Shown in pieces: positions 9,001-19,547 of a DNA stretch of 19,547 nucleotides. Position numbers: made by a program. Source of the DNA: Calditrichia bacterium (GTDB lineage Bacteria; Calditrichota; Calditrichia; RBG-13-44-9); the NCBI GenBank assembly GCA_037381445.1, contig JARRQT010000038.1:1-19547 (forward strand). Reading direction: 5' to 3'. Within the stretch, counting starts at the first letter, position 1, and each line of letters begins with the position of its first letter.

Positions 9001-12000
9001 TGGACGAAGGATGATTTCAAACCGTTCGACATAACAACTACCGACCCTGTTCCTGTTCGATGGCAAGCATGACGGCTTTGCTGAAATCCTCCGGGGTAAC
9101 GCCCGGCGATTGAATCCGCAAGGCATGGTACGATTCCACGATCTTTTCCCGTACCGTCTCGGATTCCATAGAAATGCCGCGGAGCGCCTGCTCCATGCCC
9201 CCCAGGGCCATCCCTGGTAACAGCGTGAAATCACCGGAGAGCGCCACATCATCGATGCGGTTGTCATGCAGCCGGACGGTGGCGCGGATGAGTCCGCCGG
9301 GCGCTTTGTAAACCGAATCCAGCAATTTGACATCTTCATGAATTTTAATGCCGCTTTGTTTTAAAGTGCCTTTTCGGTAGAGCCATTCATCCGAAAGAAA
9401 CCGTTTATCGATCCGCTGCACCATCGTCTCTTCTTCCTCAGACCAGGTACCGGGGATCACCTCGGCATTCAGGGTTTTGGCCATCTTCTCCGCATAAAGC
9501 CTTTTCACCTTCTCCCGGTCCGGAATCTTCCCAAGCTGGTCCTTGATGGTGGTCATATACTGCTCCAGACTCTCAAAAATTTTATCGCGCATTTTTTCGG
9601 AGGGCACCTTCAGAACCCTGGCCATTTTTGATTTGTCAAAATCGAACATCAGGCTGCCGACCAACACTTCAGCCTCGCCGATTTGCGCCGCCCCGGTTCC
9701 CCCGATTTTTTTCCCATCCACATGAATATCGTTCACCGGCCGCAGATAGGCCGGTATATCGAGCGCCCGGTAGGTTTCAACCAGCGGTTTTACGTATAGG
9801 CGGAAACGTGTTTCCAGATCGGCGGGTAAAGAACCGGGATGAAAAATCCATTGCACAAATACCTGGTTATTGTCCAGGTACACGGCGCCGCCGCCGACCT
9901 CCCGGCGGTACACCGGAAACCCGCTCTCCCTGCAGTAATCGAGATCCACTTCCTTCTCCAAATCCTGATGAAATCCAATACAAACATAAGGCCGCGCGGG
10001 GTTTACCAGAATAACCGTATCCGGAGAATCCGGCTTCATGGCATAGGCAACCGCATGATAACAGGTTTGTGAGCGCAGGGGCGATACATTTCCCAAATCG
10101 AGCAGTCTGATTTGTTTCATAAATTCTTTCCTATACCCGGAAATCCGGAGTTTATTTGAATCTACAAGGGCATAATACGAACGTTATTGAATGTGAAACC
10201 ATGGCGGGAAATTTAATTTCCGCCCGGCGATTTCTCAAATGAAAAAGTGCAGCATTGCAATTCCTTCGGAGGGAACTAAAAGCCTAGATCGGCTCGATTT
10301 GTTGATCCTTCAATATTTAACCTCCTTCCCAAAATCCTTCAAAACCATCCCAGGCCGCGATCTCCTGGCAGAAATTCCCTTTTTGTCAGCGATGGGACAT
10401 CTCAAAGGTCTTTTTCCAGCAGCTCCCATTTTTTCAGAATCGCCATGGCCCGCTCCACGATTTCCGGAATGGCAGCCGCCACGGCAGAGCTCATTTCTGC
10501 TCCGATTTCTATGTCTTCCGGTTGAGCGCCAATGAGATGCAGGTACTTAGGGAATTTACCCCGCATGGCCGCAAATTCCAGGACCTCCTGGAAGGTTACC
10601 TGGTGCTGCGACATTTTCACCTGCGTATAAAGGGGAATCGCGTCTTTGCTCAATTCAATCACTGTTCCCGGTTCTTTGCGGGCATCAATGGCGTCCAGCA
10701 GCAAAAGGTGGCTGGATGCTTCCACGAAAGGGAGGAGATTCATTCCCAGCACGCCGCCGTCCAGTAATTCTACATTATGGGTATTACCAATTCGCTCCTG
10801 CAATGGCTTCAGGCAATGAACACCCAGCCCTTCATCGCGGTTCAGAATATTTCCCAGTCCCAAAACAATCTTGCGGTCTTTTCCGAACATAAGGTCCTTT
10901 AAATACAGGCATCTTCAGTAAGAAAATATCACTAAAGATGCCTGCTTCGATTGAGTTCCCGGTTCATTTTTTCATTATTGGACGAAATCAGCTCTCACTT
11001 CAGACAGACATTAAAACCCGTTCCAACTTCCCCGACGGATTTGCCGTCAGCATCTACCATGTGAATCGCGCAGGCCAGACAGGGGTCGAATGAATGTATG
11101 GTTCGCAAGATCTCCAAGGGTTGATCCGGAACAGCCAGGGTGGTTCCCGGAAGCGAAGCTTCATACGCACCGGGCTGATCTTTATTATCACGCGGCGATC
11201 CGTTCCAGGTAGTAGGAACCACCATCTGATAATTGGAGATCTTCCCGCTGTCAATCACAATCCAGTGCCCTAACGCGCCCCGGGGGGCTTCCATAAAGCC
11301 GAATCCTTCCGCATGGTCTGGCCAACTGATCGGATCCCATTTTTCACCGTTGAAGGTTTGTGTGTTGCCGGACTGAATGAGGGTGATCAGCTCATCATAA
11401 TATCTCGGCAGCAGATCGCCAAAAACCTTGGTTTCGATGGCGCGTGCGGCAATCCGTCCCAGAGTGGAGAACAGTGCAGACGGCGGCGCTTTCAGCTTAT
11501 CCAGCACCACCCCCACCAGCTCCTGGGTGGGTTTATTGCCGGTGGCATACATGGCCAGCACCCGGGCCAGCGGTCCTACTTCGACAGGAGTTTCATTCCA
11601 GCGCGGCGCTTTCAGCCAGGAATATTTTTGATCCACTTCAAGATATTCGTAGGGAGGTTTGGGTCCCGTGTAATTGAAAACCGTTTCACCCTTCCACGGG
11701 TATAAACCGGCATCATTTCCCTGACTGTATTTGTACCATGAATGAGTTACAAACTCTTTCATCTTCTGCATATCATAGGGATCGGGGACGGTAATATTTT
11801 TCAGGTCCCGGTTCAGGATAAGGGTACGAGGCACATACAATTTCGAAAGATCATGGATATTGCCTTCCGGGAATTCACCCCAGGTCAGGAAATTTCCCAG
11901 GCCTTCGCCCAGCGCGGCATATTCCTTGTAATATGGGGCAATTGCCAAAACATCAGGCAAATAAACCTGGCTAATAAAGTCATTAATCTTGGTAATTGAA

Positions 12001-18000: not shown

Positions 18001-19547
18001 AGCCCGCTGCAGTCGAGTGTTTGATTCGGATTCACAGCCATTTTAAATCCTCCTTATGTATTTTTCTGATTTCAATTTTTGAAGGCAAGGATATTGCCCT
18101 CCTATTCAACTGATGATGTAATGAAAAACAACTCTTTCCAACCCGAGAGGATTTGAAGGTAGATTATACGATCGTTGCAGAAGATCTAACCCACCGCAGC
18201 AGAGAATATTACTTATTCATTCGAAATAAAATTTCTCCCTGCCTCCTCCTTCTATTTCCTTGCACTATAATTATCAAATTAAAATGAAGATTTTATGAAG
18301 AACTCTGAAGCATGTTACAGATATAGCCAGGATTCAATCGTGGCTATTTTGTTGCGGGTTGGGCCGCCAAAGGGAAATTATCAATTCCCTGCAAACCCTT
18401 TAATCTTCTGCATCAATTTTGCTCAAATCCGCGATCTTCTTCAAACGACGGGAGAACTCCGCCCTTTCCCGGGTGACCTGTTCAAAGGTTTGAGCTACTT
18501 TTTCCAGCCACGGGGCTATTTGTTTTTGGCGTTTTTCGCCAATCACCTGAATTTCCTTTGCGGCGGCGGTCAACGCCTTCTCGTCCAGATGATACCGCCC
18601 GGCCAGACGATGGATTCGCTCCTTTTCTTCGACGGGATCAGGCTGGCTGGTATAAAATTGTCCCGCGATCAGCATGGCCGCCAGTTCGCCGTCCAGTTCT
18701 ATGCGGGCGCGGGCATACTGCAGACCAGCATGGCAAGTAACGAATTGGGGTCGAACACTCGATTGCTCCGCCAGTTTTTTCCAGCAATCGATGCAATCCT
18801 GACGGCCCTTGTCCATGGAAAAAATCATATCACAGAAACGGCATGAATTACTGATGTGCGTCAGCGGTTCGCCCTCCGGCGATGTGGTGACCGAACCGAC
18901 ATCAGCAATTTCTGCAAAAACATCCTGAATGGGGGCGATACAGTGAATGGGCAGAATAGATTTCATCTGCATTTTGGTCTGGGATTTGGGAACATCCTGC
19001 ACGGCAATGAGGTCCTGAATATTTTTCCGGGGGAAACGCCAGTGGTTTCCCACCTTTACCGCTTTCAAACGCCCGTCATTAATCATGCGGTAAATGGTGG
19101 TCCTGTCCACTTTCAGCAAATCCAGAACCTGTTTGGTTGTTAATAAATCTTCCACAACATACATCCATTTGCTATAGCTTACTACTATTTGCTATAGTAT
19201 ATAAAATGAAATTGGACATGTCAAGAAATAAATTGGCCGAAAAGCCTAATATCGAATCCGAAAAAGAAGACGATTCCTCCCGGTATAAAAATTTAATATC
19301 CCTGGTAAGCGGAGAGGTACCGATTTCTGCCAAAACTGCTTTTAGGAATAGGCTCCATGGGTCGCTTCATAAATGAAACATTCCGGGCTCTCTGTCATAT
19401 TTAATATGTTTTCGCGATTTCAAACAATATTTCAGCACAGGAGGCAGGTCATGAAGCATGCAGCACAATTTGTTATTTTATTTCTTTCTCTTTCTATCGG
19501 ATTTTTGCATGCCACTCCCACAAAAGTTGTGGTGAGGGCGCTGGCCA

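Follow-up and report, generated by a model that had tools for sequence, protein, structure and literature searches.

In darkness, the Isp-type [NiFe] hydrogenase of Thiocapsa uses H2 to reduce S0 (PMC10892978). One review calls the acceptor of Isp2 on the cytoplasmic side unknown (PMC8551704), and for the archaeal Isp enzymes a preprint proposes, from models, ferredoxin or NAD (bioRxiv 10.1101/2022.12.13.520232). Reduction of the DsrC trisulfide has been put forward as the role of DsrK (PMC6378623). The lipoate-binding protein LbpA is marked by N- and C-terminal cysteines that are absent from GcvH; dihydrolipoate takes up sulfane sulfur, and lipoamide has a potential of -0.29 V (PMC6067878). 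In the literature we found, LbpA was described only with sulfur-oxidising sHdr, and the search returned no printed description of a hydrogenase-LbpA cluster such as the one analysed here.

The window, i.e., the whole stretch of 19,547 nucleotides that was analysed (contig JARRQT010000038.1 of a Calditrichia genome), carries a cluster of 12 genes, all on the minus strand, in the order of the first 12 entries below; two putative control elements follow them.

18400..19164, minus strand: HTH_17-PocR transcriptional regulator, present in 14/19 loci
17805..18041, minus strand: TusA sulfur carrier with CPxP; C16 in 22/22 rows
17278..17754, minus strand: DsrE2-type sulfur transferase; C119 in 25/25 rows
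16850..17218, minus strand: second DsrE, a DsrE3-like sulfur transferase (subtype suggested by synteny); C20 and C83 both in 21/21 rows
16391..16837, minus strand: GcvH-like carrier, an LbpA-type lipoate-binding protein with C7, lipoyl K74 and C147 (motifs, alignment, tree)
15252..16361, minus strand: [NiFe] hydrogenase small subunit HydS; by sequence, a twin-arginine leader, a C-terminal hydrophobic anchor and no extra proximal cysteine
14565..15242, minus strand: Isp1, DsrM/TmcC-like membrane cytochrome b; six His invariant in 31/31 rows, some loci counted twice
13238..14551, minus strand: Isp2, a DsrK-like Fe-S protein that has a single intact CCG domain; LbpA is predicted to dock at 175-182, 206-210 and 413-417
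12744..13064, minus strand: STAS/SEC14 (SpoIIAA-like) protein of 106 aa, in 11/19 loci; C16, H18 and C53 invariant in 13/13 rows, numbered from an upstream start
10995..12734, minus strand: [NiFe] hydrogenase large subunit HydL with both CxxC motifs; best PDB match 3MYR
10402..10890, minus strand: hydrogenase maturation endopeptidase, HupD-type
9038..10120, minus strand: lipoate:protein ligase of the LbpA-linked sLpl(AB)-like kind (tree, co-occurrence)
19196..19224, minus strand: sigma-70-like promoter upstream of the regulator, a consensus match only (11/12)
19160..19197, minus strand: tandem direct repeat with the core CTAT[AT]GCA, of 10-nt period in relatives

The first-pass annotation had presented these genes as one operon. 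Gene set, strand and coordinates held; with intergenic distances of 358 bp (between the regulator and TusA), 173, 104 and 281 bp, a single transcript is only presumed. The promoter upstream of the regulator is the best of 17 sites where 13.7 were expected by chance, and terminator and promoter counts in the DNA were at chance level. In 14/18 loci the repeat lies no more than 70 nt from the start of the regulator, with 23 matches against 0.02 expected for a motif derived after inspection of the very sequences in which it was counted. Its tandem form occurs only once in the Calditrichia genome, and it was absent upstream of TusA in five loci that have no regulator. The repeat is probably the operator of the HTH-PocR regulator.

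As in Isp-type [NiFe] hydrogenases, isp1 and isp2 stand between the genes of the small and of the large subunit, and the Tat leader and the NiFe-binding CxxC motifs are present. The best model matches of Isp1 and Isp2 were TmcC/HmcE and DsrK, respectively, below cut-off (239 bits for Isp2 against a DsrK cut-off of 400), and a protein homologue search returned generic names only.

The carrier had been identified as LbpA from its lipoyl lysine and terminal cysteines, an assignment that the alignment bore out: C7, K74 and C147 are invariant in 33/33 rows, and the GcvH-like rows have no such cysteine pair (L019, with frameshifts, was left out of the LbpA and Isp2 alignments and trees). The carriers form a clade (100/99) nested among the LbpAs and apart from GcvH, within a 71-row clade (100/96) that includes the sHdr-linked LbpAs, in a tree of only 146 columns from which half of the GcvH-like rows were left out. 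A glycine-cleavage H protein was ruled out by the cysteines, the tree and a separate canonical GcvH that lies with gcv genes on another contig.

The ligase groups with those of type II sHdr clusters in the tree. It was found in 28/28 carrier genomes, and in 40 relatives its presence coincided with that of LbpA, at 8/8 with LbpA and 0/32 without. K74 would be a candidate for lipoylation by this cluster-linked enzyme. No more than 6/26 carrier genomes gave a LipS2-like lipoyl synthase; LipS1- and LipS2-like queries had no match in the Calditrichia genome, where LipA is present. As the LipS2-like synthase was mostly not found, lipoate would have to be scavenged or come from another route.

Both DsrE genes had been labelled DsrE2. 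The first is of DsrE2 type, at 175 bits against a model cut-off of 210, while the second reaches 54 bits and stands closer to the sHdr-linked DsrE beside LbpA (41-49% identity). We call it DsrE3-like, a subtype that leans on Aquifex gene order (PMC11094781).

The DsrE-LbpA-HydS-Isp1-Isp2 order is kept in 19 loci from six named phyla once all 80 loci are scanned, with TusA in 17 and the ligase inside the locus in 12. The earlier count, from the 18 closest loci, was 18, 17 and 11, respectively. A Chloroflexota sample was collected via Isp2 rather than Lbp; the orthologue occurs in 7/401 genomes. In six of these an intact LbpA immediately precedes HydS, and in the seventh a deleted remnant is left.

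To LbpA we assign, with considerable confidence, the role of substrate of Isp2, on a predicted complex and sequence patterns. In the complex model, the K74 lipoyl-lysine hairpin of LbpA docks on Isp2 with a score of 0.66 (best control, 0.00); the score mark was reached by 116/157 solved pairs and 2/215 mismatched pairs, a calibration that holds only roughly for the 32-row custom alignments used here, from which L014 (ambiguous bases) was left out. Runs agreed in 100% of contacts, with a partner pLDDT of 88. The PDB sequence matches held no LbpA, Isp2 or DsrK chain, so no comparable complex was seen by sequence.

The docking surface bears a signature, R175, W178 and K/R207, that is present in 23/23 operon Isp2 copies, in 12/12 hydrogenase-free DsrK-like copies and in 0/35 other DsrK-like proteins. 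Among gammaproteobacterial Isp2 copies it occurs in 7/7 from genomes with LbpA only, 5/11 from those with LbpA and DsrA, and 0/37 from those lacking LbpA, kin that are not independent. The signature was fixed after the first 30 of these copies, and of the 25 held out only three had it, each a second copy from a genome that was positive beforehand. Compared by LbpA status, identity was 0.59 vs 0.24 at the interface and 0.38 vs 0.37 overall. The observed contrast was reached by 9/20,000 random column sets. The first column-by-column screen gave a mixed picture: 11 columns were shared with the LbpA-rich clade, R175 and K207 among them, and seven with the other.

These patterns bear on whether the genes could be co-regulated neighbours that are not coupled, with Isp2 either bifurcating electrons to ferredoxin or NAD or feeding quinone alone, and the carriers acting apart. 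Such electron transfer has been proposed, from models, for the archaeal Isp enzymes (bioRxiv 10.1101/2022.12.13.520232), the fetched flanks of seven signature-bearing gammaproteobacterial hydrogenases held no LbpA, TusA or DsrE, and 37 Isp2 copies are from LbpA-less genomes. However, 35 of those 37 are from dsrA genomes, the LbpA-Isp2 model passes, and the signature follows LbpA at equal overall identity. Moreover, two distinct DsrK-like lineages are paired with LbpA, and one of them adjoins it without a hydrogenase and bears the same three residues; a single origin of the hydrogenase-linked and hydrogenase-free subunits was rejected (p-AU 7e-6, 21-row subset). We regard uncoupled neighbours as highly improbable. 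The complex model and the surface pattern in relatives instead point to LbpA as a so far unrecognised cytoplasmic partner of an Isp-type hydrogenase.

A H2:persulfide oxidoreductase had been suggested by the first-pass annotation. The link between Isp hydrogenase and LbpA carrier stood, on synteny, trees, complex model and signature, and H2:persulfide oxidoreduction remains the most likely function, in which direction and net product are what we infer. Lipoylated LbpA would serve Isp2 as DsrC serves DsrK. Tat-exported HydSL would oxidise H2 outside the membrane, electrons would presumably move inward through the Isp1 haems, and the Isp2 Fe-S chain and CCG site would reduce the lipoyl group on K74, as a disulfide or as an adduct with sulfur; reduced LbpA could then accept sulfane sulfur from TusA, DsrE2 and DsrE3 and free sulfide. 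The purpose would be energy conservation or mainly the removal of reactive sulfur. With H2 at about -0.41 V and lipoamide at -0.29 V, the driving force for an electrogenic loop is thin. For this whole scheme, in which H2 drives the reduction of sulfane sulfur bound to proteins, we put the chances as even. The scarcity of LipS2 weighs against it, as does, in the Calditrichia genome, the sulfur supply: no YeeE-type importer was found there, and one is present in 15/23 genomes searched.

The docking evidence would fit equally well a redox shuttle to NAD(H), in which dihydrolipoamide dehydrogenase would cycle the LbpA dithiol, with electrons going from H2 to NADH or with pmf-driven H2 evolution, and the carriers would have a side role, for instance in cofactor or cluster supply. 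The rarity of LipS2 agrees with this, two dihydrolipoamide dehydrogenase genes scored above cut-off in the Calditrichia genome, and a shared E3 has been proposed to reoxidise the dihydrolipoamide of LbpA (PMC6067878). Yet no dehydrogenase gene lies within the cluster, one of the two belongs to a pyruvate-dehydrogenase-like gene set, and the three cysteine-bearing carriers, kept in 17/19 loci and recurring in the hydrogenase-free LbpA module, exceed maturation needs. We judge the shuttle unlikely.

Searches of the Calditrichia genome (91.85% complete) found no DsrC, DsrA or sHdrC1/B1/A/H/B2, the sHdr queries reaching only distant CCG proteins; the genome has three CCG genes. The absence of DsrAB/DsrC claimed at first was upheld, while the description "without sHdr" applies to this genome but not to all carriers, with sHdrB1 in 4/20, dsrA in 3/20 and one or the other in 6/20. 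Those six count against the reductive scheme. Neither gene was found in 14/20 carriers or in the Calditrichia genome, which leaves these with no known route for oxidising the carried sulfur and speaks for reduction. The published S0 reduction by the Thiocapsa enzyme, sulfane-sulfur uptake by dihydrolipoate and the action proposed for DsrK on DsrC trisulfide point in that direction too. A fragment of a local sHdr or Dsr system was rejected as an explanation of the cluster, neither having been found in the genome; no sHdr cluster surrounds or flanks LbpA here.

In one carrier (G043), the hydrogenase and hyp genes are directly followed, on the same strand, by a complete type II sHdr cluster, whose ligase shares 62-63% identity with that of the Calditrichia cluster; among the four sHdr-bearing carriers, only this one links the two. 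This arrangement favours an oxidative or disproportionating use, with sulfide loaded onto the carriers under H2 evolution or quinone reduction, or with the cluster as the reductive half of a disproportionation shared with sHdr through a common LbpA pool. The four sHdrB1-positive carriers, the signature on Isp2 of LbpA-bearing Gammaproteobacteria and the reversibility of the Thiocapsa enzyme (PMC10892978) lean the same way. Since sHdrB1 was not found in 16/20 carriers and the Calditrichia genome, this use cannot be the general role, and we hold it to be quite unlikely.

More broadly and tentatively, DsrK/Isp2-type CCG reductases could have in lipoyl-LbpA a second general class of substrate alongside DsrC, marked by the three-residue signature. 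It would have been recruited in cis on two or more occasions, with a hydrogenase and without one, and would serve in trans the Isp2 copies of sulfur oxidisers that have LbpA, among them copies linked to formate dehydrogenase. If so, many uncultured bacteria would have cytoplasmic H2/S0 respiration without a molybdoenzyme, and those in which sHdr draws on the same LbpA pool would also have a way to disproportionate sulfur. A possible precedent, HdrED with a lipoyl protein in sulfur-respiring haloarchaea, was not found in the literature searched and is not relied on. Should the reductive reading be true, an unrecognised H2-to-sulfide route would exist in uncultured Chloroflexota and other anaerobes, one that Psr/Sre/Dsr marker lists would miss. 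The named Isp2 partner, docking surface and specific residues make the Isp2 acceptor and the role of LbpA testable at the bench.

Compared with HynS-Isp1-Isp2-HynL of Thiocapsa and Allochromatium (HydDB group 1e), the cluster shares the order HydS-Isp1-Isp2-HydL, an Isp2 in one clade with the gammaproteobacterial proteins (45 rows, SH-aLRT 100) and a HydL whose best PDB match is 3MYR. It differs in an Isp2 only 33-41% identical (scored without G693), in a HydL clade of its own (support 99), from a tree without HydDB references that fixes no relation to gammaproteobacterial Isp enzymes or to the further group 1 hydrogenases of this genome, and in having TusA, two DsrE, LbpA, ligase, STAS/SEC14 and PocR regulator in cis. 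The archaeal group 1g Isp enzymes with the sulfur reductase Sre have the Isp architecture and the link to H2/S0 growth in common with it (PMC8551704; bioRxiv 10.1101/2022.12.13.520232), but there S0 reduction is assigned to a separate molybdoenzyme via quinone, whereas no polysulfide-reductase-like gene was recognised in the Calditrichia genome. With DsrMK acting on DsrC trisulfide (PMC6378623) it shares a membrane cytochrome b and a CCG Fe-S subunit that serve a small protein sulfur carrier; it falls outside DsrMK(JOP), as DsrA and DsrC were not found, Isp2 is under the DsrK cut-off and the carrier is a lipoyl protein, and the docking signature is lacking from the DsrK encoded at L201, a dsrABC cluster. 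With the sHdr-LbpA-sLpl(AB) system (PMC6067878, PMC10332631, PMC11094781) it has in common TusA, DsrE2, a DsrE3-type protein, a two-cysteine LbpA and the same ligase group, whereas the sHdrC1B1AH(C2B2 or B3) core is replaced by the hydrogenase and a DsrMK-like pair, LipS2 is mostly not found, a single LbpA is present and the proposed direction is reductive.

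The cluster comprises 12 minus-strand genes running from 19164 to 9038. These genes and their surroundings are:

19164-9038, minus: HTH-PocR regulator, TusA, DsrE2, second DsrE, GcvH-like protein (LbpA), HydS, Isp1, Isp2, 106-residue STAS/SEC14-like protein, HydL, maturation protease, lipoate ligase
16391-16837, minus: LbpA, the lipoate-binding carrier
13238-14551, minus: Isp2, the DsrK-like Fe-S subunit
8424-9032: DUF502 gene beginning 5 bp past the ligase; it was not found in the related loci
6385-8067: YgiQ-like radical SAM gene, also behind the ligase in the relative G009
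1519-2958, minus: aspartokinase-like gene, named from a reading of its sequence
2730-2873: two identical 72-bp units in tandem (24 codons each, in frame), close to where the aspartokinase-like gene starts; either an assembly artefact or a recent duplication

Spacing from the second DsrE through Isp2 is 9-29 bp, and larger gaps (358, 173, 104, and 281 bp) occur elsewhere, so a single transcript of all 12 genes can be called likely and no more. A near-consensus promoter overlaps a tandem repeat upstream of the regulator gene. The repeat core lies ≤70 nt from the regulator start in 14 of 18 loci, with 23 matches against 0.02 expected for a motif defined afterwards; the simplest reading is a putative autoregulatory operator. 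The first-pass annotation counted two DsrE2 proteins. Against the DsrE2 model (cut-off 210 bits) the first DsrE scored 175 bits and the second 54, and the latter is nearer to the DsrE adjoining LbpA in sHdr clusters (41-49% identity); judged by the Aquifex gene order in PMC11094781, it is probably of DsrE3 type.

Assignment of the carrier to the LbpA type was borne out. Residues C7, K74, and C147, which correspond to the defining features in PMC6067878, were invariant in 33/33 aligned carrier rows, and a tree of 146 columns placed the 24 operon carriers as one clade (100/99) within the LbpA radiation, apart from GcvH. The cluster ligase fell together with those from type II sHdr clusters (support 98). 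A ligase at E ≤ 1e-40 was present in 28/28 carrier genomes, including those lacking one in the locus, while among 40 control relatives it occurred in exactly the 8 with LbpA and in 0/32 without. Only 6/26 hydrogenase-type carriers yielded a LipS2-like gene, which speaks against a full route of lipoylation; according to PMC10332631, LipS-type synthases nearly always accompany the ligase.

When the carrier served as query, 80 loci were retrieved, some stopping at contig edges. The DsrE-Lbp-HydS-Isp1-Isp2 block appeared in 19 of them; 17 also have TusA and DsrE2, 14 the regulator, 12 a ligase, and 11 the small STAS protein, in agreement with the conservation first proposed. The cluster occurs in Chloroflexota, Bacteroidota, Ignavibacteriota, Bacillota, Acidobacteriota, and Actinomycetota. 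To escape circularity, 401 Chloroflexota genomes were searched with Isp2 instead of the carrier; an orthologue (>60%) was found in 7, six with an intact LbpA directly 5' of HydS and one with a DsrE2/LbpA remnant. In L204:6132-6545, the DsrE2 start is fused out of frame to the LbpA end, a deletion remnant either natural or from assembly. The distribution is patchy, since only 1/40 relatives (G009, with the same cluster) has an orthologous carrier. In seven relatives from the window's order (L083-L089), sHdr clusters containing LbpA and a ligase stand in place of the hydrogenase cluster. Individual loci vary: HydL and the maturation protease are set apart by a gene for a TDT-family transporter (L008:15376-16527, L012, L206); a cysteine-free GcvH-like gene, second ligase, and LipS1/LipS2-like genes follow the hydrogenase (L006:16207-20444, L010:10107-12800, L207); and a third, divergent DsrE-like gene separates TusA from DsrE2 (L008, L009, L011, L014, L205, L206).

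LbpA also occurs beside a DsrK-like protein in loci free of hydrogenase genes. L024 and L025 read ArsR-TusA-DsrE2-DsrE-(DsrM-like)-(DsrK-like)-LbpA, and a metagenome scan of 80 loci disclosed 20 close relatives, 16 with LbpA directly after the DsrK-like gene and 4 ending at the contig edge; these 20 belong to a single related group and do not count as separate events. In the tree, their DsrK-like subunit was not sister to the window's Isp2 (a joint clade was rejected, p-AU 7e-6, 21 rows), and their LbpAs formed a separate clade; LbpA thus adjoins a DsrK-like protein in two lineages. Another family, DsrE2-TusA-DsrM-like-DsrK-like without LbpA and often behind an ArsR-like gene (L110, L112, L114, L115, L160, L210-L215, L217), shows a gap of five residues in its DsrK-like subunit at the loop where LbpA is predicted to dock, which suggests TusA or DsrE2 as its direct partner.

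Modelling LbpA in complex with Isp2 (18-437) gave a score of 0.66, against 0.00 for the best of 3 controls; the calibration mark was reached by 116/157 solved complexes and 2/215 mismatched pairs, counts that apply to our own alignments only roughly. Model runs agreed in 100% of contacts, with a partner pLDDT of 88. The predicted interface sets the LbpA K74 hairpin (65-66, 69, 73-78) on Isp2 175-182, 206-210, and 413-417, the last just past the CxxC at 405-408. The PDB matches included no LbpA, Isp2, or DsrK chain, so recall of a similar complex is not evident. The model lends support to a predicted binding of LbpA to Isp2. A docking-surface signature (Isp2 R175, W178, and K/R207) was present in 23/23 operon and 12/12 hydrogenase-free proteins, many of them in the model alignment, and in none of 35 further DsrK-like proteins; at the three positions, an Aquificae-like copy whose genome carries sHdr and LbpA shows R, F, and K.

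Gammaproteobacterial Isp2 rows were absent from that alignment. In a 400-genome sample, 46 genomes had an Isp2-like gene, 38 of them with dsrA; an LbpA-like match, assigned by E-value alone, occurred in 6/8 of the remainder versus 22/277 dsrA-less genomes overall. Isp2 and LbpA both mark sulfur oxidisers, so this co-occurrence by itself could be ecology. At 12 interface positions, identity to the window was 0.59 in the LbpA-rich clade and 0.24 in the other (overall 0.38 versus 0.37). Across 55 copies, with relatives non-independent, the signature was found in 7/7 from LbpA-only genomes, 5/11 with LbpA and dsrA, 0/35 with dsrA only, and 0/2 with neither; LbpA-rich clade members without LbpA also lacked it. 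The contrast was matched by 9/20,000 random column sets and 0/157 slid patterns (best slid 0.36 versus 0.38). The signature was fixed after the first 30 copies were inspected; the 25 held-out copies gave 3 positives, all from already positive genomes, and 0/19 from LbpA-less genomes. LbpA is very probably the partner of Isp2, and absence of direct coupling is very improbable. Separately, some gammaproteobacterial Isp1-Isp2 pairs have no hydrogenase with them and lie behind a gene for the gamma subunit of formate dehydrogenase (L220:3-836, L253, L254, L268, L271, L273), so the Isp module seems also to be coupled to formate dehydrogenase.

The window's own genome (91.85% complete) holds a canonical GcvH with gcv genes, a second, distant ligase, LipA, HypA, HypB, HypD, HypE, two further group 1 hydrogenases, and two rhodanese domains; YeeE gave no match. 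From gene context, we read the genome's molybdopterin-family matches as subunits of complex I, diaphorase, or alternative complex III. In the proposed scheme, H2 would be oxidised outside, Isp1 and Isp2 would carry electrons inward, and Isp2 would reduce the lipoyl group of LbpA, which would strip sulfane sulfur from TusA/DsrE and release it as sulfide. We regard this whole reductive scheme as evenly poised between right and wrong. The H2 potential is about -0.41 V. With lipoamide at -0.29 V (PMC6067878), the small margin leaves energy conservation uncertain; the cluster may possibly serve to remove reactive sulfur. The genome also holds two dihydrolipoamide dehydrogenases. As an alternative to the reductive scheme, an H2/NAD(H) shuttle via E3 is unlikely.

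The description "without sHdr" holds for this genome, where DsrC, DsrA, sHdrC1/B1/A/H/B2, and LipS1/S2-like genes gave no match at 91.85% completeness, and not for every carrier: of 20 carrier genomes, 4 had sHdrB1 and 3 had dsrA, which makes 6 with at least one of the two, and 10 had a member of the DsrC/TusE family. In G043, the hydrogenase and hyp genes are directly followed, in the same orientation, by a complete type II sHdr cluster (L196, G043:C21:175000-194999), in which a STAS-like gene stands between the DsrE genes and two LbpA genes flank one for an Sqr-like flavoprotein. Oxidative or disproportionating use of the window's cluster, another alternative to the reductive scheme, is quite unlikely.

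The cluster is real and conserved, joins two known kinds, and is apparently undescribed in print. The main texts searched gave no description, including the available parts of PMC6776052, PMC10892978, PMC13384644, PMC6378623, PMC8065059, PMC8528874, and bioRxiv 10.1101/2022.12.13.520232; subscription papers were outside the scope, and supplementary genome tables of LbpA papers could list such loci. The sole paper found with both LbpA and Isp2 (PMC8551704) treats the two apart in the text available. As first stated, the LbpA paper draws no hydrogenase link, the accessible text of PMC6067878 having "hydrogenase" only within a reference; the main text of PMC11094781, as far as available, has no "hydrogenase", "Isp", or "DsrK". 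Compared with known systems, the cluster would work like DsrMK, but with a lipoyl carrier instead of DsrC, and it is a member of neither the sHdr nor the Dsr system.
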